62,979 nucleotides of DNA. Source: a virus. The first letter of the stretch is position 1. Every line of letters begins with the position of its first letter. Shown here one piece after another: positions 22,775 to 61,745 of this stretch. The stretch lies in IMG/VR virus record IMGVR_UViG_3300023216_001509; one strand, given 5' to 3'. The notes beneath the pieces are model-generated. The model had not been told where the DNA came from. It worked only from the letters and a program-made list of their open reading frames with translations, and did not search any database. The position numbers were made by a program, and so were the translations under genes.

Positions 22775-22794
22775 TGACTCATGCAAGATATCAC

Positions 22795-31207: not shown

Positions 31208-31211
31208 GAGG

Positions 31212-32186: not shown

Positions 32187-32875
32187 TCTTCCTTCGGTAG
32201 TATAACTCGGGATTCATATTCAATCGGGTCATCGATTTCGTTGTTGTGGAATGCTTCCAGGCGTTCTTGGCAGGCGCCACATTTCCCGCATGCCACCTCT
32301 TGGTCTTTGTAACACGTCCGGGTCAAGTTGTAGGGAACGTCATGTTGGTATCCCCACGCAATGATGGAGGTCTTGTCGCCTTGCAGGAAGGGGGCCATGA
32401 GCCGGACGTTCCCGTCTGTCCCGTGGTGGATGGCAGATTGCATGGCTTGGAAGAACTCTGGCCGGCAGTCCGGATAGATTTGATGGTCGCCAGAATGTAT
32501 CCCCAACCAGACTTCATTCGCCCCAAGGTTCCAAGCCACCCCAGCCAACACGGCAGAGAAAATTATGTTCCTCCCAGGGATGACGGTTTGCGTCATGTTT
32601 GCCTGCTCGTAATGACCTTCCGGAATATCCCCTCCCGAACTCATTAAATTGGAATTGAAGTTCGCCATCAATTCGTTCAGGGACATTAGGGTGAAGGGGA
32701 CGTTGTAATGCTGGGCAATCTTTTCGGCAGCGGCGTTCTCATAGGGGTTGTGCTTTGACCCGTAACAGAACCCAATGCACTCCACCTCCATCCCTGCCGC
32801 CAGCGCGGAGGCAAGTACCGTGGTCGAGTCCATGCCCCCACTCAAGGAAACGATTCCCGTGTCAACTCGTGCCAT
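32171..32875 (-). CDS. queC: 7-cyano-7-deazaguanine synthase
   Basis: VSLSGGMDSTT, VIPGRNIIF, and a C-terminal CGKCGACQER zinc motif. ATG at 32875 follows AAGGAGAG. Confidence 0.9.
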   Translation of the reverse strand: MARVDTGIVSLSGGMDSTTVLASALAAGMEVECIGFCYGSKHNPYENAAAEKIAQHYNVPFTLMSLNELMANFNSNLMSSGGDIPEGHYEQANMTQTVIPGRNIIFSAVLAGVAWNLGANEVWLGIHSGDHQIYPDCRPEFFQAMQSAIHHGTDGNVRLMAPFLQGDKTSIIAWGYQHDVPYNLTRTCYKDQEVACGKCGACQERLEAFHNNEIDDPIEYESRVILPKEEWSTQ

Positions 32876-32885
32876 TGCCCTCTCC

Positions 32886-33584
32886 TTATTCCAGTCCAAT
32901 AAACTTGTGCGTTTGAAGGCACAGCAAATAATCAAATCGATAGCATGATTCCAAGGCAGCTTCAACGTGTTTCTGGTTCAGCTCTGGGTCTTGTTCATCC
33001 ATTGGCTGGATGTAGATGGTGGACAGCGATTTGGCAAGATGGAGGTCTGGCGGCCGCGCTGGGGGCATGCCTCCAAGAGTTACGGTCGGCAACCCGTCCT
33101 CCTCGTCCACGAAGCCAGCAGCCAGAACATACTTCAACGCATTGATGTGAGGCAGCAACTCGGGGTGAATCTTGGGGGTCTTGGGGGAGCAAACAACAAC
33201 CACCTTTTCCCATGGAATGTTGTCGCGGTACAACACCCCATTCGTTTCGATTTGGACTCGGTAGTCAGCGGCCAGTAGCGCCACAATCATCGGGCCGATG
33301 TTTTGGCGGATGGGCTCGCCGCCGGTCAAGACGACCAATCCTGACCGACGGGTCGCCCGCACCAACTCAACCACTTCACTCGGTGAATACATTGTACGGG
33401 AACTCGTGTAATCCGTATCACAGAACGGGCATTGAAGGTTGCAACCAGCCAGGCGAATGAAAACAGAGGGCGACCCAATTTGTGGCCCCTCGCCTTGGAT
33501 GGTCAACCAGACTTTCACGATGTCGACATGCCCATCGTTCGGGGGCGCATATCCTTCGGTTGGTTGGCTGTTCACTTCCATCAT
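32886..33584 (-). CDS. queE: 7-carboxy-7-deazaguanine synthase (radical SAM)
   Basis: TIQGEGPQIGSPSVFIRLAGCNLQCPFCDT. Confidence 0.9.
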   Translation of the reverse strand: MMEVNSQPTEGYAPPNDGHVDIVKVWLTIQGEGPQIGSPSVFIRLAGCNLQCPFCDTDYTSSRTMYSPSEVVELVRATRRSGLVVLTGGEPIRQNIGPMIVALLAADYRVQIETNGVLYRDNIPWEKVVVVCSPKTPKIHPELLPHINALKYVLAAGFVDEEDGLPTVTLGGMPPARPPDLHLAKSLSTIYIQPMDEQDPELNQKHVEAALESCYRFDYLLCLQTHKFIGLE

Positions 33585-34033
33585 TCTGTCCTTCGGCGAT
33601 AAGTAGCCGAGTTGTTTTCAGTTTCAATGCACGTCACCCGTGTGACGTAAACACGCCCCTTCGTTTCGGCAGCGACAAAGTTGTTCACCATTTTCAAAAC
33701 GTGTCTGGCAAACATTTCGCAGCCGACATGCGGCATGGTTCGCAGTTGGATAATCCCTTCCTTGTCCAACTTCATAAAGGCGTTCAGTGCTGGGTCGTCC
33801 TCTGCCACTATTGTCGTATGATCAAAGAAGTCCGCGAGCTGCTTTTTCAGTTCGCCTGCCCCTCCGAAATCCATCACCCAATTCTTGTAATCCAGCCTCC
33901 CCTCAAATGTAACATCGAAGGCCAGGGCGTAACCATGTAAGAACCGGCAGTGGGACATATCCGCTCGCCACTGTCGGAAACAAGTGCTGAAGCCCGCAAA
34001 TCGTTTATTGCTCTGCCACATGAAATCGCTCAT
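33581..34033 (-). CDS. queD: 6-carboxytetrahydropterin synthase
   Basis: 150 aa. CRFLHGYAL...FD pattern of the PTPS/QueD family. ATGA overlaps on both sides. Confidence 0.8.
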   Translation of the reverse strand: MSDFMWQSNKRFAGFSTCFRQWRADMSHCRFLHGYALAFDVTFEGRLDYKNWVMDFGGAGELKKQLADFFDHTTIVAEDDPALNAFMKLDKEGIIQLRTMPHVGCEMFARHVLKMVNNFVAAETKGRVYVTRVTCIETENNSATYRRRTE

Positions 34034-34827
34034 GTCATCCTCCTCATAATTTGATTGCCCAGGTACTCCGCCACCTGCGGAACGACTGAGTTGCCTAGCG
34101 CTTTAAGTCTGTCCACCCGTCCGGGAAACCCATCAGATACTCTATCCAATTCGGATTCAGTGGCCCACCAGCCACTGCGTTCAGTGGAAGCGAGTTTCTT
34201 GCATATTGACTTGGGCCGGCGTTGTTGGCCGAGTCCTGCACCGTCGGTGTTGGTAGCAATGACGAAAATTCTGTCCCTCTCATGAGGCGCACCAAGGGCC
34301 GACGCTGGTATGCAATGCCACTCCGCATCAAACCCGAGCGCGGCCAGTTCCGAGAGTACGATTCCCAACCCCCGACCAAGTAACGCCGATACGTTTTCCA
34401 ACAAACAGATTCGGGGTCGGAGGTGTCCAACCAAGCGAATGACTTCATAGAACAGCGCGCTCCTTTCCCCCTTGAGCCCTTCTTTATTTCCTGCGATTGA
34501 AATATCTTGACACGGGAAACCCGCACAAATTAAATCCACAGCCAGGTGCTCCTCTGCCCAGCTTGCCGGCGGGAAGGTGGTCACGTCGTCCCACCTCCTC
34601 ACGTCTGGCCAATGCTTCTCCAACACTCGGCGGCAGAAGTCGTCCAGTTCTACTTGCCATTTGATTTGAAACCCAGCGCGTTGAAGACCCAAGTCCAGCC
34701 CGCCCACTCCAGCAAACAAACTGCCCACGGTAAAATCATTCACTCGGCCATTTCTCCGCGAGGGTTTCGTTGACATTTGTTTCATTGCCTTCCACCAGGG
34801 AGGTGAACCACCCCAGCCATCGTCCAT
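34030..34827 (-). CDS. DNA (cytosine-5) methyltransferase with a very short target-recognition region
   Basis: Motif I FAGVGG, motif IV FPCQDIS, motif VI LLENV, motif VIII ERDRIFV, motif X GNSVVP. The start is uncertain (34827, 34785 or 34776). Confidence 0.85.
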   Translation of the reverse strand: MDDGWGGSPPWWKAMKQMSTKPSRRNGRVNDFTVGSLFAGVGGLDLGLQRAGFQIKWQVELDDFCRRVLEKHWPDVRRWDDVTTFPPASWAEEHLAVDLICAGFPCQDISIAGNKEGLKGERSALFYEVIRLVGHLRPRICLLENVSALLGRGLGIVLSELAALGFDAEWHCIPASALGAPHERDRIFVIATNTDGAGLGQQRRPKSICKKLASTERSGWWATESELDRVSDGFPGRVDRLKALGNSVVPQVAEYLGNQIMRRMT

Positions 34828-36712: not shown

Positions 36713-36745
36713 TGGTGTCTCCTTGTGATTAGAAGTTTCGGTTGC

Positions 36746-36949
36746 TTACCTTATTATCGGAACTTGATTTTGACTTTTCGGTGGCTTGTCCTTTATTTCT
36801 TTTCTGATGATCTTCACGTCGGGTGGTGCGTCAATTCCAATTCGGGCCTTGCCGTCGGAGTGGGTACTCACCAGCACAATTCGGGCCAGCACCTCCCCAT
36901 TTAATATCAGGTGAATTTCTTCACGCAGCCTTCTTGTCAGCACCAGCAT
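36746..36949 (-). CDS. csrA: CsrA-family RNA-binding translational regulator
   Basis: MLVLTRRLREEI...ARIGIDAPPDVKIIRKEI aligns by eye with E. coli CsrA MLILTRRVGETL...VRIGVNAPKEVSVHREEI. Confidence 0.85.
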   Translation of the reverse strand: MLVLTRRLREEIHLILNGEVLARIVLVSTHSDGKARIGIDAPPDVKIIRKEIKDKPPKSQNQVPIIR

Positions 36950-36959
36950 CGCGGTCTCC

Positions 36960-37256
36960 CTATTTCACTTTTTCTACGAACTGATCCAAACCATAACTGA
37001 GAACAACTCGTTCAATATGAATCCCATTCACCAGATCAATGCTGGTGACAGCATGGGCCAGTTCGCCGTTCACGAAAACATGGCAGCACCGTTCGAGTTG
37101 TTCCCACCAATCCTCGTTCATCTCCTGCTCGACCAGGGATGGTACGAAGGGCGCCTCGACCAGCACTTTCCCATCCTCGGCACGGACTACTCCTTTTCCT
37201 GTTTCCCCACTAGGGAAAGTGATTTTGATGGCGCAGAATTCTGGGTTCGCTTTCAT
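36960..37256 (-). CDS. Hypothetical 98-aa early protein (N-terminus MKANPEF)
   Basis: ATG at 37256 lies behind the conserved leader. The longer ORF-track start merely translates the leader as PPPTKETKT. Confidence 0.5.
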   Translation of the reverse strand: MKANPEFCAIKITFPSGETGKGVVRAEDGKVLVEAPFVPSLVEQEMNEDWWEQLERCCHVFVNGELAHAVTSIDLVNGIHIERVVLSYGLDQFVEKVK

Positions 37257-37287
37257 GGTCTTGGTCTCCTTGGTTGGTGGTGGTGTT
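37257..37287 (-). promoter_or_regulatory. Conserved CA-rich leader/SD cassette
   Basis: Minus strand reads ACACCACCACCAACCAAGGAGACCAAGACC-ATG. Confidence 0.7.
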
Positions 37288-37960
37288 ACTTGCCAACGAT
37301 CATCTCGTTGCCAATGCGGGCGAGCGTGGGGTATTCCTTTTTCAAGTAATTCTTCATCTCTTGGTCGAAGGGCATTTTGATCTGGTGCCACGCACCGAAG
37401 TCGCCTTCAAGCTGGAACACGGTCATGGTCTTGCACCAGCGCTTCAGGTCACGAAGCTCAAGCCAGTTGGTAAACATCTGGCCCACAATCCAATCCAGTT
37501 TCTCCGACTCCACGTCGTAGATTACGTCATCCAGTTCGTACGTCAAATCCTGGCCGTCGGCCCAGTCCTCAAGGGTCTGTTCGATCTGACGATTGCGGCG
37601 CCATTTGCCATCCTTGCCCTTGAACGACCAGTCATAGAAGTTGGGGCCACCTTGGCCTTGATTTCGGACTTCACAAACCTTCTTGCCATTCAGATAAAGG
37701 TTGGCACTGAAGCAGTCGGTTTCCTCACTCATGTCGGCGTGGTACTTCACGGCCTTGAGTTCGACCTTGAAATGTTCCGACCCGTCGCCTTCCCCTGTCT
37801 CCACTTCATGAAAACAAGATTTACAGCAGAGGGTATAGCCTTCGGCGTCTGGCCCTTCCATGTGGAAGGTGGAGTGGGCGCCACAGCAGTCGGTCAGGCG
37901 CAGTCCAAAGTGGGGTGAAGCGAGGTTATTGTCGAATCGTTTTGTTGTTGTCGCGGTCAT
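37286..37960 (-). CDS. Hypothetical 224-aa protein with an N-terminal Cys cluster
   Basis: Leader-type RBS GAGGAGACCAAGACC-ATG. CCGAH...CCKSC motif. Confidence 0.5.
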   Translation of the reverse strand: MTATTTKRFDNNLASPHFGLRLTDCCGAHSTFHMEGPDAEGYTLCCKSCFHEVETGEGDGSEHFKVELKAVKYHADMSEETDCFSANLYLNGKKVCEVRNQGQGGPNFYDWSFKGKDGKWRRNRQIEQTLEDWADGQDLTYELDDVIYDVESEKLDWIVGQMFTNWLELRDLKRWCKTMTVFQLEGDFGAWHQIKMPFDQEMKNYLKKEYPTLARIGNEMIVGK

Positions 37961-38014
37961 GGTCTTGGTCTCCTCGTGATAGTGGTGTTGGTTACTTTAT
38001 ACTCGGAACTCGTG

Positions 38015-38066
38015 TGCAGCATTCTCCCCTCGTCCGACAACCGGACGAGGGGGTGATGGCGAACAC
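38015..38066 (-). other. Conserved post-stop hairpin element (copy X)
   Basis: Minus strand reads GUGUUCGCCAUCAC-CCCCUCGUCCG-GUUGU-CGGACGAGGGG-AGAAUGCUGCACAC. A paralogue at 46880-46931 has the same flanks and a different stem top. Confidence 0.6.
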
Positions 38067-38888
38067 TTAACTCAAGTTAACGCTGCTGTGCCAAGTGTCC
38101 AACTTTTCGCCGGACAGGTTATGATCCGTCGGGTCTCGTTCCATATCCTTTTCGAATGCCTTGCAAACCTGCGAGGCAATCCGCGACCACTTCTGGGAGG
38201 CACGAAATTCCTCCATCAACCTCACCCGAGACATGGCGTCGCTGCTGCCGAAGTTGATGTCGGAGGTGACGTGGGCAATGGCATCGTTCCGAACATCGAT
38301 GAAATAACCGAGCACCTCGTCCTTGGTCATGCGGTCATCTCCCTTTGCCTCCAGCCAGGTTTTGATCCGACTGCGCAGTTGGTGTCCGTAGGACGCGAGT
38401 GCGCCGTGGTAGAACACTTCCGAACCATGCCGACGAATTTCCTCGCCCATGTGGATAGCCGACGAGGCAGCAATCAGCTTGCCGATTTTGTCGCACTCAA
38501 TTTCGGAGGAACGAATGATGGTGGCAAGGCCACGCTCAAGTGCGAGCAAGGCGTGGGGCAGGGGCATGCGGTCGTCCCGCGAGTAATCCCAGTCACGCTT
38601 CAGGATACCCTGCCGGTATTTGGTATCGGAGAGTTCCTGCCTCGCCTGTACATCCTCCTCGTGGCGGATGTAAGGCAACAGCGCGTCCATGAGCCCATCC
38701 TTGTTGAGCTTGTGGACTGCGGACTTGGTCAGGAAGCATTTGCCTGCGTCCTCGTCCGCGGAATGGATGACGCCACCGTATTCCCAATTCTCCATCGCGG
38801 CGAAGAGGGCGTGCTTGAGGTCGACTTTGCTGTACTCGACCAGTGCGGTTGAAACTTGGTTGATGATGTTTTTGACGGTCATGGTCAT
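38067..38888 (-). CDS. Hypothetical 273-aa early protein
   Basis: ATG at 38888 lies behind the conserved leader. Confidence 0.5.
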   Translation of the reverse strand: MTMTVKNIINQVSTALVEYSKVDLKHALFAAMENWEYGGVIHSADEDAGKCFLTKSAVHKLNKDGLMDALLPYIRHEEDVQARQELSDTKYRQGILKRDWDYSRDDRMPLPHALLALERGLATIIRSSEIECDKIGKLIAASSAIHMGEEIRRHGSEVFYHGALASYGHQLRSRIKTWLEAKGDDRMTKDEVLGYFIDVRNDAIAHVTSDINFGSSDAMSRVRLMEEFRASQKWSRIASQVCKAFEKDMERDPTDHNLSGEKLDTWHSSVNLS

Positions 38889-38919
38889 GGTCTTGGTCTC
38901 CTTGGTTGGGGTTGGTGTT
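38889..38919 (-). promoter_or_regulatory. Conserved CA-rich leader/SD cassette
   Basis: Minus strand reads AACACCAACCCCAACCAAGGAGACCAAGACC-ATG. It directly abuts the hammerhead motif. Confidence 0.7.
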
Positions 38920-38970
38920 GGTCTCATCAGTGCGCGCCATAAGCGGCAGACCCCCGAGGGGGTTTCGACC
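38920..38970 (-). ncRNA. Type II hammerhead ribozyme motif (copy A)
   Basis: Minus strand reads GGUC-GAAA-CCCC(CUCG)GGGG-UC / UGCCGC(UUAUG)GCGcGCA-CUGAUGA-GACC. All invariant core positions are present. Confidence 0.8.
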
Positions 38971-38972
38971 TT

Positions 38973-39518
38973 CTACAGAACCCGGCCGAAGTCACACTCG
39001 TCAAACTTTTCGACGGCAGCTTTGACGATCGCATACTGTGCATTCATTGCAACCATCAGCCCAATGGCCCGGCCGCAGTTGAAGTTGTTTGCGCCGGCGG
39101 CGGCAAGGCTGGTTGCCTTGGCGGCGGTGTCCATCGCATCCATGAGGGCAAGCATCCCGTCGCTAGCTTTGTAATAACTATCCCGCAGGGCGTTGAAGTC
39201 ATCATTGTCCAAGTCACCCACTGCTGCGTTCAGGGTGTCGTCCTCGATGACCTTTTTCTTGGGGGCGGGTTGGACTTTGGTATCGTTCACCCACATCCCG
39301 AAGTCCTCGATGAGGTAATCAATCGCGCCGGTGCCTTCCTGCGCTTCCAGATAAGTGACGAGGCCGGCTGCCTTGTTGTGGTCATAGAGTTCAGCAAAAT
39401 ACTGATCGACCTGCTGGTGAATATGGTGACACGCGGCTTCGCTGCAGTTGATACCGATCAGCCAGTCGCACAGGTCAATTTTGAAGTTGTTAAGTTCGTT
39501 GTTTTTGGTCATGGTCAT
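38973..39518 (-). CDS. Hypothetical 181-aa early protein
   Basis: ATG at 39518 lies behind the conserved leader. Confidence 0.5.
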   Translation of the reverse strand: MTMTKNNELNNFKIDLCDWLIGINCSEAACHHIHQQVDQYFAELYDHNKAAGLVTYLEAQEGTGAIDYLIEDFGMWVNDTKVQPAPKKKVIEDDTLNAAVGDLDNDDFNALRDSYYKASDGMLALMDAMDTAAKATSLAAAGANNFNCGRAIGLMVAMNAQYAIVKAAVEKFDECDFGRVL

Positions 39519-39543
39519 GGTCTTGGTCTCCTTGGTTGGTGGG
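39519..39543 (-). promoter_or_regulatory. Conserved CA-rich leader/SD cassette
   Basis: Minus strand reads CCCACCAACCAAGGAGACCAAGACC-ATG. It fills the whole gap from the upstream stop. Confidence 0.7.
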
Positions 39544-39750
39544 TTACATCCAATTGACTTCGCCGTAGGCGAGTTCAACATAAAGGCGAAAGTCTTCAAG
39601 TGTCGTATCAAAGTCTTGGAGGTCTTCGGTGTCTGACTCGTTGAAGTATTCCTCGACGGTTTCAATCATTGTGGTCTGGTCGTCTTGGCCACAAATGTTT
39701 TCCAGCAGGGTTTCGATGATTTCAGTTTTGATTTCGTTTTGCTTGGTCAT
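39544..39750 (-). CDS. 68-aa strongly acidic early protein (first gene after promoter PL1)
   Basis: MTKQNEIKTEIIETLLENICGQDDQTTMIETVEEYFNESDTEDLQDFDTTLEDFRLYVELAYGEVNWM. Many Asp/Glu and very few basic residues. Confidence 0.55.
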   Translation of the reverse strand: MTKQNEIKTEIIETLLENICGQDDQTTMIETVEEYFNESDTEDLQDFDTTLEDFRLYVELAYGEVNWM

Positions 39751-39783
39751 TGTTTTGTCTCCTGTTTTGTTTCTTGTCTATGT

Positions 39784-39812
39784 AATATAACGGCTGTCTA
39801 AGACCCTGTCCA
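39784..39812 (-). promoter_or_regulatory. Sigma70-like promoter PL1 (TGGACA-17 nt-TATATT)
   Basis: Minus strand: -35 at 39812-39807 and -10 at 39789-39784. Near-identical copies at 47763-47791 and 61561-61589. Confidence 0.7.
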
Positions 39813-39952
39813 CTCCTATTTCCCTGATATTTTCAGGATTTCTGCCCGGGCAATTTAACGGTGATCTAAGGGGGTTTCCGGGTTCCCCGCATAATCTAGG
39901 GGCCAGGGCATGGAAGTCCCTTAGATGGGCAGCAGGGGCCACCGTGAGCAAC

Positions 39953-41347
39953 CTAGAACGTAGACCGAATGGCTGGGTTCCCCACCTCTAAACAGCCCGC
40001 GACGTGGACGCATTGGGTTTCGCTGAAAGGCGATTCCCGTAACACAATCCAATTCAACCGCATGAGCCCGCATTCCTTTTCGTCCGAGTTGGCGTTCAGC
40101 CCAACCATGCCGGTGACGTGGGCGAACTTGCGTTTGTCCTCGCTGAAGTTTGACCGCCCAATGGTGTTGGCATTGTACGAGGCGGCGTCGGCTTGGGTGG
40201 CGGTCACGACCAGGGAATGAGTAGACTGGGACAGCGCCCGAAGTTGTTTCCAAGTGGTGTTGATTTGATCACGGGTGTCCGCAATCCCATGAGGTGGAGC
40301 CAGGATATCCGCGTAGTCAATTACGATCACGTCAGGTATCCAACCACCACGTTCCCAGTTCTGGAGGATGGCACGAATGCCGCTGACCGTCAGCGTCGAG
40401 TTCGGGTGGCAGCTGAGGCGAAGCATCGCCTCCTTGGATTTGATTTTGGTTTTGATGATTCGCTGGCAGGCCTTGTAAGCGGTCTGCCATCCCATCTCGG
40501 TCGCCTCCTTCCTGTCCTCCACCACCAGCGCTGCCATTGGCGCACCAGATTCGCGTTCAATCTTTGTTGGGTATTTGTACTCCGACGGTTTCAACGGACG
40601 GCGGGCAGCGCGCACCATCAGGCGCCGCATGATTTGGTTCTGGCTCATGTCCCCCACTTCAAAGAAGGCAACTTTCCTGCGCTGGGTCATTGCCCTCCAA
40701 GCCACGTCCAACAGCCACCACGTCTTGCCTCGTTTTTCTGCCCCCATGAATGAGATGAATGCGTCACGTTGTAAGGCGGCGCCAAAGAACCTTCCCAAGG
40801 CACCAGGATATTTGATAAGGGGTTCCAGTTGTTCCTCGAACGCCTCACGGATGGCCCCCTCGTCGGACAGGGGATCAATCCCCGCGCCCACTCCCATCTC
40901 AACTTGACCATAGGTACTGACCCGCTTCAGGGCGCTGTCCAAGTTGCCGGCAGTAACGTCCCCGCTGATCGAGTCGGCAAGGCGTTTGAGTTTTACTTGG
41001 TTGAAATACTTGGACGCTAAATCAATCACGTAGTTGCTATTCGATTCTTTGCTGAGGTGTTCATGTTCCTCGGACAGGCCACCTAGGAACCGCTCCACAA
41101 TCTTGACGGTGTCTTCGTCGCGGTTGGTGCTGGCCCATGCCTCAAACAGCCCTTCGATTTCTTTCCCGGGGGCGTCCTCGTACTCGTTGAAGAAGTCAAC
41201 GCACCACCCGCCAATGAGGTTGCCCCATTGGGAACGGAACAAGTCGCCTTCCCACTTGGTTGCTATGCGGGCGAGAACCTGCTTGTCCACAATCATGCCG
41301 GTGAGGATTCGGCGTTCGTTTGACCCGTCACGCTTTGCTACCTTCAT
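39953..41347 (-). CDS. dnaB: DnaB-family replicative helicase
   Basis: Walker A GAEKRGKT, Walker B VIVIDYADIL, LVVTATQA. Confidence 0.8.
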   Translation of the reverse strand: MKVAKRDGSNERRILTGMIVDKQVLARIATKWEGDLFRSQWGNLIGGWCVDFFNEYEDAPGKEIEGLFEAWASTNRDEDTVKIVERFLGGLSEEHEHLSKESNSNYVIDLASKYFNQVKLKRLADSISGDVTAGNLDSALKRVSTYGQVEMGVGAGIDPLSDEGAIREAFEEQLEPLIKYPGALGRFFGAALQRDAFISFMGAEKRGKTWWLLDVAWRAMTQRRKVAFFEVGDMSQNQIMRRLMVRAARRPLKPSEYKYPTKIERESGAPMAALVVEDRKEATEMGWQTAYKACQRIIKTKIKSKEAMLRLSCHPNSTLTVSGIRAILQNWERGGWIPDVIVIDYADILAPPHGIADTRDQINTTWKQLRALSQSTHSLVVTATQADAASYNANTIGRSNFSEDKRKFAHVTGMVGLNANSDEKECGLMRLNWIVLRESPFSETQCVHVAGCLEVGNPAIRSTF

Positions 41348-42476
41348 AGTCCATCCCTGTCAGGAGTTTATTTGCTTCCATTGCATCCTGCCCATAATTA
41401 ACGATCAGGCCCGCGATGTACTTTTCAAATTCTGAAGAATCAACATCGAAGCTCAACGGCGCCAAGTTGCCACTCCACGCTTCCCAGTTGTTCACCCGCT
41501 TCCAGATGTTGCTGAACCACGTCTCTACGAAGTGGCTGGGCGCCGGCAACACGTCCACCAGGTGCCGCAGCAGGTTCCGATGCCGTGTCAGCCGCATCCT
41601 TTCTTGTGGTTCGCTGGCCGTGTTGGGATCGATCAGTTCTGCCTGCTGTATAACTTGATCACGGAACCACCCGTATCCATCCAATGAGACTTGGACAAAC
41701 GCTGGCAGTTGTTGCCCTGCCCCCTTCGGCCAATGCGCCATCAACAACCTCTCCACAACCTTTTCTGCTTCAGGGGTGACGGTGATCTGGGGGTTGTCCC
41801 GTTGCCCACGTTTCATTGCCGCAACCACCCTGTCAAACTTGTCACGGAAGATTTTGGCCGTGTAGCATTTCGGTGTCCATTGGTCACGGTAGTTTTCGCA
41901 GTACCAATCCAAGGCAGCTTCAATCATTTCCTTGGGGATGTTGTCTGCCGTTCGTAATAGTCGGAAGTGATTGGGCCAGGTTTTGGGCAGACGTTGTTTC
42001 TGTTTGTTGGGTGGCAAGGTTGTTTGAAGTTGAAGCGCTGCCGCTTTGTCGAATGGTGCGTGGTGAGTTGTTTCTTCTTCCTCTGGCTCAAATCCAAACC
42101 CGCCAGCGGGATGTGCTTTGTTCTTAACCTTCCCCAAGGGGGAAGGGGGAGGTGGATTGTCCTCCAACTCAGCCGAGGACAACCTGTCCAACTCTACCCG
42201 ACTCCAGACGGTTTCCAAGTACCGCCGGCGCCCGTCGAACTTGACTTGTTTGATGAGGTCTTTGTGTTTCAGTTTACTGATCAATCGGGCGATGTAATCC
42301 GGTCGAACCCCAAGGATTTCTCCGAGGTATTTGTTGGACGCATAGCAGCCCTTTTCTGGTGTGACCAGGGAATCGATCGTCGCCAGCAAGTGAAGTTCCG
42401 TGGCTCCAATTTCCTTGTTCAGGAACATGAACCAGACTGTCGCTGGTATCCAAATCCCTCTGAATTTCGGGTTCAT
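41328..42476 (-). CDS. Replication initiator/organiser candidate with N-terminal winged HTH
   Basis: ASNKYLGEILGVRPDYIARLISKLKHKDLI. Located between the primase and helicase genes. Confidence 0.45.
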   Translation of the reverse strand: MNPKFRGIWIPATVWFMFLNKEIGATELHLLATIDSLVTPEKGCYASNKYLGEILGVRPDYIARLISKLKHKDLIKQVKFDGRRRYLETVWSRVELDRLSSAELEDNPPPPSPLGKVKNKAHPAGGFGFEPEEEETTHHAPFDKAAALQLQTTLPPNKQKQRLPKTWPNHFRLLRTADNIPKEMIEAALDWYCENYRDQWTPKCYTAKIFRDKFDRVVAAMKRGQRDNPQITVTPEAEKVVERLLMAHWPKGAGQQLPAFVQVSLDGYGWFRDQVIQQAELIDPNTASEPQERMRLTRHRNLLRHLVDVLPAPSHFVETWFSNIWKRVNNWEAWSGNLAPLSFDVDSSEFEKYIAGLIVNYGQDAMEANKLLTGMDYEGSKA

Positions 42477-43339
42477 TCCAGGAACCTCCTCAGCTCTTGG
42501 ATTTCCATTTCACTGGCCTCGGCCGCGTCCTTCGCCACGAGTGTCACGTTGTAGGTTTCACCCGGGAACGGTTCTATTAGATCACAGAGTTGCTCTGCTC
42601 TTTTCTGGGCTTGGGTTTCGTTGTCAAAACATATCACTCGCACAGGGTACTTGCTAATCTTTAAGACTTGAGCCTTGGAGAACCCTGTCCCGCATGTTGC
42701 CACCGCTCCCGGGCCAGTCCGCCAAGTATCGAACGGCCCCTCGTGTACGATCACCGCATGCCGACAGAAGTCTTCTCCATAAAGTAATTTCTTGTGATTG
42801 ATTTCCTCGTGGTCTGCTGGCGCTGATAAGTACCGAACGCCCCTGTCCGAAATGGAACGGGTTGTCCACGAAACAACTCGCCCACGGTAATGAATTGGAA
42901 TGAACAACCTCCACGGGAGGCGTGCATGTAATCCGATTCCCCGGACACCCCATAATCGTGACAGGGATTTGAAATCCAGACCACGCCATTTCAAGTAGTT
43001 GATGTGCGCTGGCAGCAACTTGCCGACTCCCGTCGGTAACACTAGGGAACCACGTCTCTCGATGGTGGTTTGGATGGTGGTGCTGTTGAGCCCTTGTGTT
43101 AGCTCACGGATGGCGGCGTGGGTCTTGCCGGTCATTTCAACCAACGTGTCCACGACGCGGTGGGAACCACATTGCCAGCAGTTGACATAGTGAAGGTTCA
43201 GGTTCCACCCAAGATGGAAGCGGTTCGTGTCCCGCCCACAGAACGGACAATCAGTTTGGAGCCAGCCCGGGCGGCAGTGGTGGTGTCCCTCTTTTAAGAA
43301 CTTAACTCCCAGGGACAGGAGCAAGTTATCTAGATTCAA
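42473..43339 (-). CDS. DNA primase (zinc finger plus TOPRIM)
   Basis: CPFCGRD...CWQCGSH, then VIVHEGPFD and VICFDNE. Confidence 0.75.
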   Translation of the reverse strand: MNLDNLLLSLGVKFLKEGHHHCRPGWLQTDCPFCGRDTNRFHLGWNLNLHYVNCWQCGSHRVVDTLVEMTGKTHAAIRELTQGLNSTTIQTTIERRGSLVLPTGVGKLLPAHINYLKWRGLDFKSLSRLWGVRGIGLHARLPWRLFIPIHYRGRVVSWTTRSISDRGVRYLSAPADHEEINHKKLLYGEDFCRHAVIVHEGPFDTWRTGPGAVATCGTGFSKAQVLKISKYPVRVICFDNETQAQKRAEQLCDLIEPFPGETYNVTLVAKDAAEASEMEIQELRRFLE

Positions 43340-43553
43340 GTTGGTTGTCCTTTTTGATGGCTTCCCGCATCAGTTCCACAACCTTGTCCGTCATGGTGAT
43401 ACCACGTCTGGCGCAGTAGGCTTTGAACTGGTCTTTCACTCCCCTTGGGATGTTTCGTAGGAATACGGTGGCGGGTGGCTTAACTGGTTTCACGTGTAAG
43501 TTCCTCCTGAAGTTGATCGAAGATATTGAGCTGCTCATCAATGGTGCCTCCAT
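43326..43553 (-). CDS. Ribbon-helix-helix DNA-binding protein candidate
   Basis: VFLRNIPRGVKDQFKAYCARRGITMTDKVVELMREAI. The true start is probably internal (GTG near 43494). Confidence 0.4.
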   Translation of the reverse strand: MEAPLMSSSISSINFRRNLHVKPVKPPATVFLRNIPRGVKDQFKAYCARRGITMTDKVVELMREAIKKDNQLESR

Positions 43554-44832
43554 CTAGGGTTGCGGATAGAACGGCCTGTTTCTCTTGGATGATTCGGGAC
43601 AACCTTTCCTCAATGGTGTTCACGCCGATCAAGTAATAGCACGTCGACTTGTACTGCTGCCCAATCCGGTGGATGCGGTCTTCGCCCTGAATATGCTCTC
43701 CGGGTGTCCACCCAAGTTCCGCGAACAGGACGGTGGAGGCAGCGGTGAGGGTCAGTCCTATGCCTGCCGCTTGGAGGTTCCCAATGAACAGGCGTGTTCC
43801 CTTGTGGCGTTGGAATTTGTCGACGGAGCGTTGCCGCTTTTTCCCCGTCACCTGCCCAGTCACAGTCACGCAACCCGGATAGCGTTCCTTCAGTTGCTGA
43901 ATGATGTTTTTGTGGATGGCGAACACCACAAGCTTGTCATCTGTTTCTTCCAGAAACGTGTCTATCCAATCCATCACCGCTTTGAGTTTTAGTTCGGCCG
44001 CGAGGCGTTTCAAGTATCCCATTTTGACTAGCCGCTGGGCGCGGGCAGCAGAGGTCGCCTTCTGTTTGGAATACTTGGACAGCCACAAGATCAAGTCCTC
44101 CTCGGCCTCGTCGTATTCCTTTCGGTTTTCCAAGGGGACAGGAACCGCGTGCCTTGCCTTCGCCGGCAGGTCTTTCAACACGTCCACCTTCCGCCGGCGC
44201 ACCATACAATTCGTGATGAGGATTTCATGGAGTTCGGGTAGGTTCCGAGCGCCCTTGTATTCCCAGCCCCACGGTTTCCGCTGGGCGGCACAATACTCAA
44301 GGGCGTAACTCATGAACGACTTGAACAAGTCCGGGCGGATGATGTTTAGAGTTGTCCATAACTCGGCGGGGCGGTTGGTAAGAGGTGTCCCAGACAACGC
44401 CAACACGTGAGGCACTGACTTGCACAGTTGCTTCACGTAGCGTGTCCGCTTGGCCTGCCTGTTTTTGATGTACTGGCACTCGTCCAAGATTACCAACTTG
44501 GGTTCCAAGTCCACCAGGTATTCCAACCAAGGGCCGAGGATTTCGTAATTGATAATCACGAAGGGGTTTTGCTTGAAGACCTTTTTCTTCGGCGGCTTGG
44601 TTCCCTCCAGGATTTCGGCTCGCTCCTTGATGTGGACTGCCGCTTCCCTTGCCCAGTTGTACTTGAGCGAGGCAGGGCAGATGACCACAACGGGCGACAT
44701 CTTATTGCGTTTGAAATAGTAGAGGGCTTGGATGGTCTTGCCCAGTCCCATTTCATCTGCCAGCAGGACACGGCCACCGAGCTTCTCCAGTTGTAGCACG
44801 CCTCTCTTCTGGTAGCGATAAAGTTTGGTCAT
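43480..44832 (-). CDS. SNF2-family helicase/translocase
   Basis: ADEMGLGKT, LILDECQYIKN, LSGTPLTNRPAELW, HRIGQ. The ATG at 44832 follows GGAGGTGG and forms an ATGA overlap. Confidence 0.85.
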   Translation of the reverse strand: MTKLYRYQKRGVLQLEKLGGRVLLADEMGLGKTIQALYYFKRNKMSPVVVICPASLKYNWAREAAVHIKERAEILEGTKPPKKKVFKQNPFVIINYEILGPWLEYLVDLEPKLVILDECQYIKNRQAKRTRYVKQLCKSVPHVLALSGTPLTNRPAELWTTLNIIRPDLFKSFMSYALEYCAAQRKPWGWEYKGARNLPELHEILITNCMVRRRKVDVLKDLPAKARHAVPVPLENRKEYDEAEEDLILWLSKYSKQKATSAARAQRLVKMGYLKRLAAELKLKAVMDWIDTFLEETDDKLVVFAIHKNIIQQLKERYPGCVTVTGQVTGKKRQRSVDKFQRHKGTRLFIGNLQAAGIGLTLTAASTVLFAELGWTPGEHIQGEDRIHRIGQQYKSTCYYLIGVNTIEERLSRIIQEKQAVLSATLDGGTIDEQLNIFDQLQEELTRETS

Positions 44833-45362
44833 GCCACCTCCTTCAGGATGGTAATTATTTCGGCGAAACACGCCTTGGTTTCTTCCGGTGTCCACTTATA
44901 CTCGGTCGCCAGGATTTCCTTCAGGGCTGCTTTCCCATCACGGCAACTGTCCGGAACATCTCTCCGGGTGGCGACGAGCTTGACGATCAGCCGGGCGCCT
45001 TTACTTAGTTCCCGAACAGCGCAGAAGTCCTCGAGGTCGAACTCAACTTGGATGGGGGCGGTTGCCGCCTCCAAGACACCCACGTCCTCCCGTGGTAGCA
45101 GGACGAGGTGCTGCTGTCGCACGCGCACTTCATCCTTCAGCTTCCACCAGATAAGTTGCCTCACCCAAGTGGTGAACTTCATGCCCTTGCCTTCGGTGTA
45201 TCGATCGTAAGCGGCGATGAAGATTTCTTGGGCGTAAGAGAACAAATCCTGGTAGTCCCCGCCATACTGTTTCTGAAAGTCGTGGCAGGTTTTGTGAATG
45301 AGCAGTTGCACGTCAGCGTATGTTTCCGCAAGTGCATCGCGGCGCATGGTCTTTGCCTTCAT
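44829..45362 (-). CDS. Sigma-70 family (ECF-like) sigma factor
   Basis: Region 2-like DLFSYAQEIFIAAYDRYTEGKGMKFTTWVRQLIWWKLKDEVR. Region 4-like LSKGARLIVKLV...LKEILATEYKWTPEETKACFAEI. Confidence 0.6.
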   Translation of the reverse strand: MKAKTMRRDALAETYADVQLLIHKTCHDFQKQYGGDYQDLFSYAQEIFIAAYDRYTEGKGMKFTTWVRQLIWWKLKDEVRVRQQHLVLLPREDVGVLEAATAPIQVEFDLEDFCAVRELSKGARLIVKLVATRRDVPDSCRDGKAALKEILATEYKWTPEETKACFAEIITILKEVA

Positions 45363-45412
45363 GGCTTTGGTCTCCATTTGAAGTGGCGCTTCGTGAATTG
45401 GTATTTTACCAC

Positions 45413-45430
45413 GTCCAACAAATGTTGGAC
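45413..45430. promoter_or_regulatory. Operator-like palindrome upstream of the sigma gene
   Basis: gtccaac-aaat-gttggac, between the terminator and the sigma factor RBS. Confidence 0.4.
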
Positions 45431-45435
45431 AGCAG

Positions 45436-45474
45436 TATAAAAAGGAACCCTCCCGAGGGATGTCCCCGGGAGGG
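45436..45474 (-). terminator. Rho-independent terminator after the DUF932 gene
   Basis: On the minus strand, a CCCUCCCG...CGGGAGGG stem is followed by UUCCUUUUUAUA. Confidence 0.65.
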
Positions 45475-45487
45475 CGCCGGCCAGGTT

Positions 45488-46222
45488 TTAGTTAGCGGAG
45501 AAACAGTCCCTCGCGTTTGGGAGCAATGCCCTGAACCGATTCATCTGGTTCATCTGCTCGATGGGCGGGTTGCGCTTCACGGTGTGCGTGAACGCATTGA
45601 GCAGCGCCCAACTTGTGTCACGTCCGTGCTCGGCGAAGGTGGGGTTGCGGTACTCTTTGTCCACAGCACCAATTCGCGACCAAGGCATGAGTCGGTTTCG
45701 GCCCGCTTCCATCAAAATCTCGTCAGCCTGAGCTGGACGAAGTTTGTTGTTGCGGAGGTCTTCCACCACCTCGTTGATGCCGCGTGCCTTGGCGACATAC
45801 TGGTCAAGGGCTGCTTCAATTTCCCCGAACAGCTGAAAGCCATGAGTATGCTTCCGCTGCATGACGATCTCGCCTGTTGCCATCCCGTTGTTACAGACGA
45901 CGACGTTGGTTCCCACAACCAGCAGCAACGAGCGCCGCATCATGTTGGAGGTGAGGAACCCAAGGGACAACTCCTGCCCCTCCGGCGCGTCCAGTCCCTT
46001 GATGTCCAAAGTGAACGCCCCGGCGAGGTCTGCCTTGTCCTTGGACACAGCAAAGCGCTGGCCCTTGATAACCCAACCACGGGTTCCGATTTCATCAACC
46101 AGTGCCGATGCTAATGCACCATGCGGTATCCCTTGCCAGTACGCGCCGGCCTTGGCTGGGCGCTGCAGGGGGATGCGGTTCAGGTCGGCGAGGGACGTGT
46201 TGGCTCCGTAAACAGTAATCAT
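45488..46222 (-). CDS. DUF932-family protein
   Basis: LLLVVGTNVVVCNNGM...TSWALLNAFTHTVK pattern typical of DUF932 proteins of phages, plasmids and ICEs. Confidence 0.55.
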   Translation of the reverse strand: MITVYGANTSLADLNRIPLQRPAKAGAYWQGIPHGALASALVDEIGTRGWVIKGQRFAVSKDKADLAGAFTLDIKGLDAPEGQELSLGFLTSNMMRRSLLLVVGTNVVVCNNGMATGEIVMQRKHTHGFQLFGEIEAALDQYVAKARGINEVVEDLRNNKLRPAQADEILMEAGRNRLMPWSRIGAVDKEYRNPTFAEHGRDTSWALLNAFTHTVKRNPPIEQMNQMNRFRALLPNARDCFSAN

Positions 46223-46265
46223 CAGATTCTCCTTGAAGTGAAATGGTCAAAGTTTGTTGGTCTAC

Positions 46266-46279
46266 AATATACTCGGAAC
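46266..46279 (-). promoter_or_regulatory. CCGAGTATA-box promoter-like element (copy 3)
   Basis: Minus strand reads GTTCCGAGTATATT, 44 nt upstream of the ATG at 46222. Confidence 0.4.
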
Positions 46280-46291
46280 AAAGATTTGAAA

Positions 46292-46846
46292 TTATTCGGA
46301 GGCCCGTTCCAATGCCCTCCCCTCTGCCTCGGTCAGGGGCGCGACCTTGCCCATCTTCATCGTGTCCCAATCGTGGTCGCTTACCATGCGCGCCCCAGCC
46401 TTGAGCTGAAGCTTGATTGTGACGTCACTGATTTTGTAATTTTCGGAAACGGTACAGATGGCAATGGTGGCGTCTTCAACTCGGTCGGCCCACCCGTTTG
46501 CTCCCATCCAACGAAGGACGGCGCAGACACTATATCCGAACGCCTTGGCTCGGACAGGTTTGGTTCCGCTGCCCTTCTTCTTGCCCATTCGGGCAACGAT
46601 GTCTGCCGGCAGGGACAGGGTCTCCACATCGTACGAAAGTTGATTTCCATCAACTAGGTGAACCCCACGCTTGGCCATGGCGACCGTCAGGTCGGCACGC
46701 CACTGCTTCCAGATGCGCTGGGCATCGTGGACGTGTTTCTCGCTCAGGTTCATTCGCTCGGCTACCGACTCAATTGTGACGCATTCTTGGTCGGCCAGGA
46801 TTGCCAACTCGTTTGATTCCTTGGAAAATTCTGGGTTCGCTTTCAT
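46292..46846 (-). CDS. Hypothetical early protein with MKANPEF N-terminus and one LRWMG-type domain
   Basis: ATG at 46846 lies behind the conserved leader. Contains FGYSVCAVLRWMGANGW...VTIKLQLKAG. Confidence 0.5.
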   Translation of the reverse strand: MKANPEFSKESNELAILADQECVTIESVAERMNLSEKHVHDAQRIWKQWRADLTVAMAKRGVHLVDGNQLSYDVETLSLPADIVARMGKKKGSGTKPVRAKAFGYSVCAVLRWMGANGWADRVEDATIAICTVSENYKISDVTIKLQLKAGARMVSDHDWDTMKMGKVAPLTEAEGRALERASE

Positions 46847-46880
46847 GGTCTGGTCTCCTTGGTTGAGGTTGGTGTTGGTG
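46847..46880 (-). promoter_or_regulatory. Conserved CA-rich leader/SD cassette
   Basis: Minus strand reads CACCAACACCAACCUCAACCAAGGAGACCAGACC-ATG. Confidence 0.7.
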
Positions 46881-46931
46881 TGCATCAATCTCCCCTCGCC
46901 CGCTTGTGGGCGAGGGGGTGGTGGCGAACAC
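46880..46931 (-). other. Conserved post-stop hairpin element (copy Y)
   Basis: Minus strand reads GUGUUCGCCACCAC-CCCCUCGCCC-ACAAGC-GGGCGAGGGG-AGAUUGAUGCACAC. Confidence 0.6.
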
Positions 46932-47327
46932 CTATGCGCCGTTGATCAGTGCCAGCTTGGCAGCAATCGAATCGGCACCGAACTTGAAAGCCTTGCCGGA
47001 GCGGACTTCCGTGGCAGAGATGGGGTACTTGCGTCGACGCGACTTCAGTCCCGTGATGACGAACAGGTTCCCACGGCTGTTGAACTCCTTGCCAAGGTCT
47101 GACGGCTGCAGTCCGTAGCTGGCTGCATGCCGCTTGAAGTCCTCGGCCTCTTGGGAAAAGACTTCCCCGTCCTCGGACACTTCGCTACCCACGACTTTGA
47201 AGGTGGCGGTGTTGTCCGTGTAACTGACACTCCCCATTTCAAACTTCATTCCAGTGGCCTCTTCGATGGTTCGCAGGGCCGCTTCAATTCGCAACTTGAC
47301 GCTCGTGATGTAAACTCTGTCGATCAT
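46932..47327 (-). CDS. Hypothetical 131-aa early protein
   Basis: RBS GGGAGACC. Confidence 0.5.
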   Translation of the reverse strand: MIDRVYITSVKLRIEAALRTIEEATGMKFEMGSVSYTDNTATFKVVGSEVSEDGEVFSQEAEDFKRHAASYGLQPSDLGKEFNSRGNLFVITGLKSRRRKYPISATEVRSGKAFKFGADSIAAKLALINGA

Positions 47328-47359
47328 TGTGGTCTCCCGAAAAGTGGTTAAGTGCTGAT

Positions 47360-47409
47360 GGTCTCATCAGGCCCGGAACAACCGGACGACCCCCGAAGGG
47401 GTTTCGACC
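47360..47409 (-). ncRNA. Type II hammerhead ribozyme motif (copy B)
   Basis: Minus strand reads GGUC-GAAA-CCCC(UUCG)GGGG-UC / GUCCGG(UUGUU)CCGGGC-CUGAUGA-GACC. It begins at the last base of the upstream stop codon. Confidence 0.8.
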
Positions 47410-47720
47410 TACTCCTCGGTTTCCAGCAGCATGAACTCGTAGAGGATTGCTTCAAGTCTTGCCAGCCCTTCGATGGTCTTGTCGGCAAGGTAATCCTCGG
47501 AGTGCAGGACGAGGTAATAGCTGTCCACGTTTTCCTCGATCGTCCAGCCCTCACCGTAGACAAGCACGGCCACTGCCTCGCTGTCGAACACGCCGAGGCC
47601 ATCCCACGGCCCGTCAGCGTTGCGGATTACAGTTGCCCTGAAAGCATTGAAGTTAACCAGGTGATTTAGGATGTTGAATTTGAAAGGGCGGAAAATCTCA
47701 TCATGTTTGGTTGTGGTCAT
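47409..47720 (-). CDS. Hypothetical 103-aa early protein (first gene after promoter PL2)
   Basis: ATG at 47720 lies behind a leader variant (CAACCAAGGAAACCAAGACG-ATG). Confidence 0.5.
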   Translation of the reverse strand: MTTTKHDEIFRPFKFNILNHLVNFNAFRATVIRNADGPWDGLGVFDSEAVAVLVYGEGWTIEENVDSYYLVLHSEDYLADKTIEGLARLEAILYEFMLLETEE

Positions 47721-47762
47721 CGTCTTGGTTTCCTTGGTTGAAGTTGGTGTCCTTGTCCATGT

Positions 47763-47791
47763 AATATATCGGCTGTCTAAAACCACGTCTA
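47763..47791 (-). promoter_or_regulatory. Sigma70-like promoter PL2 (TAGACG-17 nt-TATATT)
   Basis: Shares the TAGACAGCCGATATATTACATGGACAAG core with PL1 and PL3. Confidence 0.6.
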
Positions 47792-47854
47792 TCCCTTTTC
47801 CCTTGATTTTCTTGGGTTTTCGTTTGCCCCCTTATTTTCGTATCCGAATTGAAA

Positions 47855-60550: not shown

Positions 60551-60572
60551 TTGGTCTCCTTGGTTGGTGGTG
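60551..60572 (-). promoter_or_regulatory. Conserved CA-rich leader/SD cassette
   Basis: Minus strand reads CACCACCAACCAAGGAGACCAA-ATG. It fills the gap from the upstream stop. Confidence 0.7.
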
Positions 60573-60989: not shown

Positions 60990-61016
60990 GGTGGTCTCCT
61001 TGGTTGGTGGTGGTGT
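60990..61016 (-). promoter_or_regulatory. Conserved CA-rich leader/SD cassette
   Basis: Minus strand reads ACACCACCACCAACCAAGGAGACCACC-ATG. Confidence 0.7.
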
Positions 61017-61406: not shown

Positions 61407-61415
61407 GTTGGTCTC

Positions 61416-61526
61416 CTAGCGAGTGGTGAAGGGTTTTGAAACTGGGCCAATTTTGGCTTCAAATCGGACGGCCAGTTTGTGGCCGAAGTAAAGTGTTGCT
61501 GCGATTGTTATCGTGATGGTCAACAT
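61416..61526 (-). CDS. 36-aa hydrophobic peptide (not in the ORF track), first ORF after PL3
   Basis: CGGAGACCAACC-ATG. Translation MLTITITIAATLYFGHKLAVRFEAKIGPVSKPFTTR. Confidence 0.3.
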   Translation of the reverse strand: MLTITITIAATLYFGHKLAVRFEAKIGPVSKPFTTR

Positions 61527-61560
61527 GGTTGGTCTCCGTTGAGTTACTGCTTGTCCATGT

Positions 61561-61589
61561 AATATATCGGCTGTATAAAACCCTGTCCA
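61561..61589 (-). promoter_or_regulatory. Sigma70-like promoter PL3 (TGGACA-17 nt-TATATT)
   Basis: About 70 nt (61551-61617) is nearly identical to 39771-39840, including the upstream palindrome cctgatattttcagg. Confidence 0.7.
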
Positions 61590-61736: not shown

Positions 61737-61745
61737 ACCTGACCA

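Follow-up and report, generated by a model that had tools for sequence, protein, structure and literature searches.

A reiterated A/C-rich Shine-Dalgarno leader before small, putatively early genes of an uncultured phage, a candidate portable translation-initiation module

The virus record IMGVR_UViG_3300023216_001509, analysed here over its whole length of 62,979 bp (the window), is apparently the whole genome of a tailed, uncultured phage. Its genes are arranged in four strand blocks (plus 1-18.4 kb, minus 18.4-47.9 kb, plus 47.9-59.8 kb and minus 59.8-61.6 kb), and its right end is taken up by a field of short repeats. Eight minus-strand genes, starting at 37256, 37960, 38888, 39518, 46846, 47720, 60550 and 60989, are preceded by a full copy of one short leader, in which an A/C-only tract of 12-21 nt is followed by GGAGACC, which includes the Shine-Dalgarno (SD) sequence, then by an A/C-rich spacer and the ATG. 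Seven further genes carry shorter versions of it.

Three 70-nt elements hold the best sigma-70-like promoters of the region and head three minus-strand units (at 47791, 39812 and 61589). TAGACG-N17-TATATT lies at 47763..47791 within the repeat 47752-47821, and TGGACA-N17-TATATT at 39784..39812 and 61561..61589 within the repeats 39773-39842 and 61550-61619, all on the minus strand. From these three repeated promoters we infer that the leader genes are expressed early.

All leader copies lie on the minus strand. Next to the promoter at 47791, the 5' untranslated region 47721..47762 before the ATG at 47720 is a promoter-proximal leader whose SD reads GGAA and which contains three GGA motifs. It is followed by a partial leader, GGGAGACCACA-ATG (47328..47359, start 47327), located 3' of a hammerhead candidate, by the full leader of the gene at 46846 (46847..46882), with a spacer shorter by 1 nt, and by the partial version GGAGACCAAAGCC-ATG (45363..45385) of a sigma-factor gene, whose orthologue in the relative L120 has the full core. 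The second early unit opens with a promoter-proximal A/C-rich leader, GGAGACAAAACA-ATG (39751..39783), before its first gene. Its full leader before 39518 (39519..39543) forms the left end of a three-gene indel relative to L120, the one before 38888 (38889..38919) lies directly 3' of another hammerhead candidate, and the nearly full copy ACCAACACCACTATCACGAGGAGACCAAGACC before 37960 (37961..37992) follows a promoter-like GAGTTCCGAGTATAAAGTA (37993-38011). The full leader CACCACCACCAACCAAGGAGACCAAGACC before 37256 (37257..37285) directly follows the TAA of a 224-aa gene, and its translation initiation region has a predicted dG of -0.5. Then come a minimal version, GGAGACCGCG-ATG (36950..36959), in front of a csrA gene, and a partial one, CACAAGGAGACACCA-ATG (36713..36745). 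Behind the promoter at 61589 we found a promoter-proximal partial leader, CAACGGAGACCAACC-ATG (61527..61560), a short version, TAGGAGACCAAC-ATG (61407..61418), overlapped by the stop codon of an upstream 36-aa open reading frame (ORF), and full leaders before 60989 (60990..61016) and, with a short spacer, before 60550 (60551..60572), the start of a DUF6011 protein.

A sequence-only reading of this DNA had listed these starts, apart from the one behind 39751..39783, and a leader was found at each start listed. It had, however, counted 37960 among the short versions and read GGAGACC at 36712, where the letters are GGAGACA, and the set extends beyond the range given for it, 36950-47750, to 60550-61526. 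Its statement that the leader can form the whole intercistronic gap from stop codon to ATG holds at 37256 (29 nt), 39518 (25 nt), 60550 (22 nt) and 60989 (27 nt), the last three directly following, like the first, a TAA. Overall, one of four things lies between a stop codon and the next leader: nothing, a hammerhead-like element, a conserved two-stem hairpin or a promoter. GGAGAC(C) by itself is the general SD sequence of this phage and is used by late genes too, for example at the plus-strand positions 4284, 15066 and 16987.

As to base content, the description of the leader as lacking U applies to five copies, which are T-free, and G is limited to GGAG and one position of the spacer. In six leaders, an A/C-only run of 14-21 nt adjoins GGAG directly. 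ACA occurs within five of the eight full leaders as delimited, and in two more (37256 and 60550) it spans the boundary with the stop codon (UAACAC). Because the U-free leader has no stop codon, ORFs run on upstream through it, as in 36960..37391, 38067..38927, 38973..39665 and 46292..46888, and the in-frame reading ...CCA ACC AAG GAG ACC AAG ACC ATG yields the peptide PTKETKT, rightly taken for an artefact before. This behaviour of U-free leaders deserves the attention of those who run gene callers.

The genes behind the leader are indeed unrelated, with neither paralogy nor shared family matches among their products: in Pfam and PHROGs searches all were ORFans except the DUF6011 protein. Paralogy as the origin of the repeat was rejected, the leader proteins lacking significant similarity to each other save for one shared N-terminus of seven residues.

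The resemblance between the copies is not confined to the SD, a point on which the earlier proposal could have failed. When the 5' tract and the spacer were scored separately with the SD excluded, the eight full copies reached 8-16 for the tract and 5-9 for the spacer, compared with maxima of 8 and 6 and means of 4.3 and 3.4 among the other 74 predicted genes; both parts are shared, and the eight copies are set apart cleanly from the rest. The 11-mer CCAAGGAGACC, with up to one mismatch, has nine matches in the window, seven of them leaders, against an expectation of 1.67, and nine or more were seen in none of 100 shuffles. The 24-mer CCAACCAAGGAGACCAAGACCATG, for which zero occurrences are expected, is present exactly at 37254, 38886 and 39516 and with three mismatches at 47718. 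Only one orientation is used, that of transcription, and the leader ends 0-9 nt from the ATG. Pairing of the spacer with 16S rRNA was considered and discarded, as by inspection of the canonical 3' end of the rRNA only AAGGAG pairs. A hexamer rhythm, GAGACC-AAGACC-ATGACC-ATGACC, can also be recognized. A search for an antisense or small RNA partner revealed no leader-complementary non-coding sequence in the window; G/T-rich complements were present only inside coding regions.

The expectation that the leader is unstructured was borne out by prediction. Folding of the region from -35 to +21 of every predicted gene gave energies of -0.5 to -3.0 kcal/mol for the eight leader genes (mean -1.5 kcal/mol), compared with a mean of -8.4 kcal/mol for the other 74 genes (Mann-Whitney p=1.4e-5).

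Leaders and breakpoints in related phages

Relatives were recovered by pattern scans and protein scans. Two independent assemblies of the phage itself, L057 and L145, both reproduce the arrangement of the window. L088/L120 represents a relative at ~72% nucleotide identity, L122-L124 are relatives with a GC content of 43% (53% in the window) from TARA and another marine metagenome, and L121, L125-L130, L023, L037 and L084 belong to remoter lineages. A 15-mer scan of viral contigs gave mostly single chance matches, together with the key relatives L057 and L088. There is no close cultured relative: megablast of the region gave no match to cultured phages, and protein searches returned relatives at only 22-38% identity and did not indicate a host.

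Aligning 22 leaders of three phages (window, L120, L124) showed no variation in GGA-ACC and at least 90% conservation of GGAGACCAAGACCATGA; the early promoters of the same three phages have diverged. The 5' tract is lineage-specific and always free of G, reading CACCACCAACCAA in the window, ...ACAC in L120 and (CACTTT)n or CAACAAC in L124. That its sequence varies and yet stays G-free points to selection on composition or structure, and the whole pattern of conservation fits selection for an unpaired initiation region and not a neutral repeat. In the remoter relatives L023, L037 and L084, ACCACCAACC-GGAGAC is found instead.

The number of leader genes is eight in the window, nine in L120 and six in L124, with about four orthologous pairs. 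Between the leader clusters, the replication module is conserved in all relatives and, except for the sigma gene of L120, has no leader, while nearly all of the flanking small genes, most of them lineage-specific, carry the core leader.

Gene gain, loss and replacement in relatives were found to end exactly in leader copies, in agreement with the previously suggested option of a recombinogenic cassette junction. L120 shows the left flank of leader 39518, a single leader and then the right flank of leader 37256, so that 37257-39518 (2.26 kb, three genes) is an indel between two leader copies that share 28 identical nt. Between L123 and L124, whose identity is otherwise 98.5-99%, one cassette is replaced (L123 2400-2641 versus L124 8382-8788); there, identity stops right after GGAGACCAAGACCATGACCA and returns at the next leader. 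L123 also displays a tandem leader duplication that forms a 13-codon mini-ORF (L123 2380-2460 versus L124 8362-8400) and, at L123 2631-2660, a deletion at a microhomology (GAAACGCT) that truncates the next gene. Two minus-strand genes of the window that are otherwise unrelated (37236-37256 and 46826-46846) share an identical leader and, behind it, the same initial 20 coding nt (seven codons, MKANPEF); their orthologues in L120 and L124 have other N-termini. This shared start looks like a gene-conversion tract that reaches from the leader into the ORFs.

Candidate roles of the leader

In our preferred reading, to which we assign a probability of roughly 0.6, the leader is a portable module, kept by selection, that starts the translation of accessory early genes and also provides homology for the shuffling of cassettes in early hyperplastic regions. 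In the mRNA, the G-free tract of 12-25 nt (C and A only in this phage) could not pair with itself, as neither G-C nor G-U pairs would be available, and the GGAG of the SD, the fixed A/C-rich spacer (ACCAAGACC) and AUG-ACC would thereby be kept single-stranded. Whatever comes before it, be it stop codon, hammerhead, hairpin or promoter, the initiation region (SD, spacer and AUG) would stay accessible, and each promoterless cistron of the three early polycistronic units would be translated efficiently. In the DNA, the same 25-45 nt in one orientation before many genes would act as direct repeats, at which the encoded recombination machinery (UvsX-like recombinase, SSB and RusA) could delete, insert, replace or convert cassettes, and a cassette landing at a leader would be expressed at once. 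We infer both that the leader raises translation and that recombination uses it as homology instead of merely being tolerated there.

If this is true, the idea of the mobile regulatory cassette extends from promoters and terminators to the ribosome-binding site, one short sequence both making an incoming gene translatable and supplying the homology for its entry. This would help to explain how ORFan early genes turn over in lytic phages of uncultured marine hosts while their operons stay undisturbed. The leader, being compact, structure-free and free of stop codons, is a candidate portable expression element, and arrays of the core motif offer a marker for hyperplastic early regions in metagenomic phage contigs.

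Several observations weigh against this interpretation. The leader is absent from structural genes, the capsid gene among them, and is thus not simply the strongest ribosome-binding site of the phage. The near-invariance of the spacer ACCAAGACC is explained neither by SD pairing nor by lack of structure alone, and the avoidance of U is not kept, the tracts of L124 containing U, in contrast to the avoidance of G. Moreover, viable indels are expected to end at gene boundaries anyway, and since the leaders sit there, the indel and the replacement suggest but do not prove that the leader supplies the homology; L123 and L124 are metagenome assemblies in which a mis-join at repeats is possible, though 20-40 nt is shorter than typical final k-mers. 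Finally, single copies of the 18-nt core stand at gene starts in about ten unrelated phage lineages with 47-66% GC, and an 18-mer genome scan matched 79 single loci in diverse bacteria, with no arrays and no related prophage among the 79 matches and no indication of a host. The similarity may thus be due in part to a generic "good ribosome-binding site", and the core may simply be a favoured initiation context.

Another reading, which would make the leader a translational control site as the sequence-only reading also suggested, is that the conserved core, GGAG plus the fixed spacer, is the operator of a trans-acting post-transcriptional regulator which shuts the early cassette genes off together. 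We regard it as unlikely, though far from negligible, and it is compatible with a role in translation and could hold in addition. One candidate regulator is encoded next to the leaders, as the csrA gene (67 aa; 36746..36949, minus strand) lies in the same unit as, and downstream of, four leader genes. Its product is a CsrA homologue (Pfam PF02599, 44.5 bits versus a cut-off of 27, E=1.5e-11), and a profile built from three CsrA sequences matched solved CsrA, RsmE and RsmF at E ~1e-7, while a PDB search with the single phage sequence gave no match. Acting like RegA of T4, the phage CsrA could bind an exposed A(N)GGA at the SD, making the leader a concrete candidate RNA target for it; indeed, CAAGGAG or ACACGGAG is predicted to be presented single-stranded, and two of the three promoter-proximal leaders have two to three GGA motifs ~20 nt apart. 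Tight CsrA binding, however, usually needs two GGA sites, and most leaders have one, a second being excluded by the G-free tract. The csrA gene is conserved in relatives with leader arrays (L120, L122 and L124), and the array-free fragments L128 and L130 did not show it, but this co-occurrence comes from two lineages and from fragments and is not phylogenetically independent. The same core also occurs in unrelated phage fragments in which no CsrA was seen, short as these fragments are, and the phage CsrA may equally target host mRNAs. The other candidate is a RegB-like endoribonuclease cutting in GGAG. The invariant 13-nt GGAGACCAAGACC, which rRNA pairing leaves unexplained, would suit it in position and length, resembling the 11-nt single-stranded GGA plus A-rich target of RegB/S1 in early mRNAs of T4 (PMC1702504), yet no RegA- or RegB-like protein was detected in Pfam and PHROGs searches.

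The two ideas can be combined. The leader could be a "socket", that is, a translation adapter and an integron-like recombination site for promoterless ORFans in lytic marine phages, and at the same time a GGAGACCAAGACC operator through which CsrA or a RegB-like nuclease shuts off the accessory early regulon, with hammerheads and hairpins setting the stabilities of individual mRNAs. We put this forward as speculation and think it rather improbable.

It is more doubtful still that the repeat has no function beyond an ordinary SD and is a by-product of copy-and-paste or gene conversion of cassettes, which dragged the junction along in concerted evolution. The 5' tracts are alike within a genome and different between lineages, the putative conversion tract enters coding sequence and the leader is tandemly duplicated in L123, all of which such a process could produce. 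It does not account for a core that stays the same between lineages with saturated neutral sites (~72% nucleotide identity; GC 43 versus 53%) and diverged promoters, nor for the avoidance of G that is kept while the sequence of the tract changes, nor for leader folding energies significantly smaller in magnitude than those of other genes. Conserved core, G-avoidance and low folding together indicate purifying selection on the RNA.

A DNA-level signal, be it a promoter for a phage sigma factor or the operator of a DNA-binding protein before each early gene, is scarcely credible: a sigma-70 region-2 protein is encoded by the phage and DNA-binding sites were proposed for the extended start-associated sequences of Cluster K phages (PMC3203893), but the element is asymmetric and without dyad, stands in one orientation only, matching transcription, and always 0-9 nt from the ATG with its SD at the correct spacing, so that an internal promoter would yield SD-less transcripts, and separate promoter-like motifs, TGGACA-N17-TATATT and GTTCCGAGTATAWWGTA, are present.

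Neighbouring RNA elements and the rest of the genome

Both hammerhead candidates beside the leaders are of type II. Candidate 1 (38920..38970, minus strand) lies between the stop codon at 38973 and the leader of 38888, with predicted cleavage after GUC, and candidate 2 (47360..47409, minus strand) overlaps the stop codon of a 103-aa gene and precedes the ATG at 47327. The full consensus core is present in both (CUGAUGA / GAAA / GUC, G10.1-C11.1, A15.1-U16.1), minimum free energy and centroid folds give a type II three-way junction with an open stem II, and stem I differs in sequence between them and pairs in both. Their scores of 24.1 and 23.9 bits are below the gathering threshold of 37 for RF02276 (E ~1.7 over the whole window). 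No Rfam match at the gathering thresholds was obtained for the whole window, and at E<=10 there were only these two sub-threshold Hammerhead_II matches and chance matches. L120 has a terminator and a promoter-like motif in place of candidate 2. In phage operons, hammerheads flanking single genes are known (PMC3088659).

Similar motifs were noticed in two viral contigs from outside the comparison with the window. At ~640-760 and ~980-1090 of L099 and ~1050-1100 of L046 (all plus strand), hammerhead-like CUGAUGAG is directly followed by AACCAAGGAGACCAnnATG, the two motifs of L099 by AACCAAGGAGACCACCATG, which suggests that the pairing of ribozyme and leader is more widespread. Rfam searches at E<=1 gave no match in L120, L124, L099 and L046.

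The two-stem hairpin element, GUGUUCGCCAYCACC-[CCCUCG...CGAGGG hairpin]-GAGAWUGMUGCACAC, stands directly after a stop codon in each of its copies, at 38012..38066 and 46878..46931 on the minus strand, the latter running into the leader of 46846, and at 5030-5085 on the plus strand of L120. Its upper stem covaries, its fold z-scores range from -3.7 to -4.5, and it has no U tract; the three copies found are too few for a covariation analysis or a model, and there was no Rfam match. A role in RNase III-type processing or in stabilising the mRNA is conceivable.

Apart from the 70-nt promoter repeats of the window, the relatives carry their own multi-copy promoter repeats (at least four in L124), reminiscent of the promoter-early stem-loop (PeSL) cassettes of T4-type phages. 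A second promoter-like motif, (T)TCCGAGTATAWWGTA, CACGAGTATA or CGATAATA, occurs at 37993-38011 and ~46255-46285 of the window (both minus), at ~8140, ~9650 and ~1000 of L088 (minus) and at ~8900, ~9940 and ~17530 of L124. All relatives have it ahead of their DUF932 gene, some cassettes are likewise preceded by it, and the phage sigma factor (44829-45362) may read it as a middle promoter.

The replication module of the minus block comprises a DUF932 protein, the sigma-70 region-2 protein, an SNF2 helicase, a Toprim-domain (primase-like) protein, a helix-turn-helix protein and a DnaB-like helicase. The block also encodes a DNA polymerase in two ORFs, clamp, clamp loader, SSB, UvsX-like recombinase, RusA, an SbcC-like exonuclease and a 7-deazaguanine cluster. 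The polymerase ORFs are adjacent and overlapping (26422-27801 and 27798-29015, minus strand) and correspond to the C- and N-terminal parts of one PHROG family. The 7-deazaguanine DNA-modification cluster (30059-34033, minus strand) contains Tgt/DpdA-like, GTP cyclohydrolase, QueC, QueE and QueD homologues, with a DNA methyltransferase next to it (34030-34827). Upstream of the recombinase gene, a repeat cluster of TGTCATGAC / CATGCAAAATGTCATGACATCTGGCATGCGGGTCTC (22636-22800; three copies of ~64 nt each) lies beside an A/C run with SD at ~22626 (minus strand). Most other A/C-only runs of the window are the many (ACC/CCA)n runs at 12645-14420 (plus strand) of the ORF 12024-15041 (1005 aa), which code for Thr/Pro-rich linkers and are unrelated to the leader.

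Dense 10-12-nt periodic repeats on CCAGG/CCTGG, together with five copies of an 82-nt unit, fill 61740-62979 and 1-140; an Rfam "tsr1" match in this field is at chance level. As the field runs off the end of the window and seems to be continued at position 1, the record may be circularly permuted, and the field could be an origin, a packaging site or a binding-site array. A search of the window for tRNAs and tmRNA found none.

Comparison with known systems

The sequence-only reading had called so closely shared a leader unusual. This was overstated in view of the start-associated sequences (SAS) of Cluster K mycobacteriophages (PMC3203893), the PeSL of T4-type phages (PMC2839356), the C/A-rich or ACA enhancers (PMC3879156) and the presence of the 18-nt core in about ten unrelated phage lineages. 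The closest analogues are SAS and PeSL, with SAS as the closest descriptive match.

In T4, RegA and RegB act on a shared GGAG-containing motif of early mRNAs, and the RegB/S1 target and the RegA operator serve the coordinated post-transcriptional shut-off of these mRNAs (PMC1702504). The leader resembles the RegB/S1 target as a predicted single-stranded motif of ~11-13 nt that starts from the GGAG of the SD and is common to many early mRNAs. It differs in that no RegB or RegA homologue was detected and in that the sequence downstream of GGAG is A/C-rich and far less degenerate. C/A-rich elements with ACA just upstream of the SD were shown experimentally to be translation enhancers in enterobacterial targets of GcvB (Yang et al. 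2014, PMC3879156). Here, too, a C/A-rich tract, predicted to be single-stranded, lies immediately 5' of the SD, with ACA in most leaders (UAACACC, ACACGGAG). Those enhancers, however, belong to individual cellular genes instead of a reiterated cassette, and they are defined by the small RNA GcvB, whereas the window yielded no antisense partner rich in G/U.

PeSLs are mobile cassettes of T4-type phages, in which recombination between neighbouring copies forms excised mini-circles (Arbiol et al. 2010, PMC2839356; PMC4122927). Like them, the leaders are repeated intergenic expression signals that are concentrated in hyperplastic regions rich in small early ORFans; where close relatives differ by indels or replacements, these terminate in the repeats (window/L120; L123/L124), and the repeat is proposed to ensure the expression of an inserted gene. 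In PeSL, this is achieved at the level of transcription by a strong sigma-70 early promoter and a terminator stem-loop, while the leader is a translation-initiation region inside operons and has neither. The three copies of the 70-nt promoter repeat are the more literal counterpart of PeSL in the window, where promoters and terminators are separate from the leader.

A genome contains 11-19 SAS, all in one orientation, and the start codon a few nt behind them is mostly ATG (Pope et al. 2011, PMC3203893). They are confined to non-structural genes and are kept from one sub-lineage to another before different gene families; a role in translation was proposed for them, as yet unproven (PMC3203893). 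Both SAS and the leader are short, asymmetric repeats with an SD core and with conserved positions that cannot pair with 16S rRNA. The leader, with eight full and seven partial copies, all on the coding strand and 0-9 nt from the ATG, is likewise restricted to non-structural genes, here in the early minus-strand blocks, and its core is kept in L120 and L124 before non-homologous genes. The consensus is GGGATAGGAGCCC in SAS and (C/A)n-GGAGACCAAGACC here, and the hosts and phage lineages are unrelated, ours being uncultured marine phages, so that the leader is an analogue of SAS and not a member. Where SAS have an inverted-repeat extension (extended SAS, ESAS), the leader has a long G-free upstream tract, and, unlike SAS, it often fills the entire intercistronic gap and is the place to which recombination breakpoints map.

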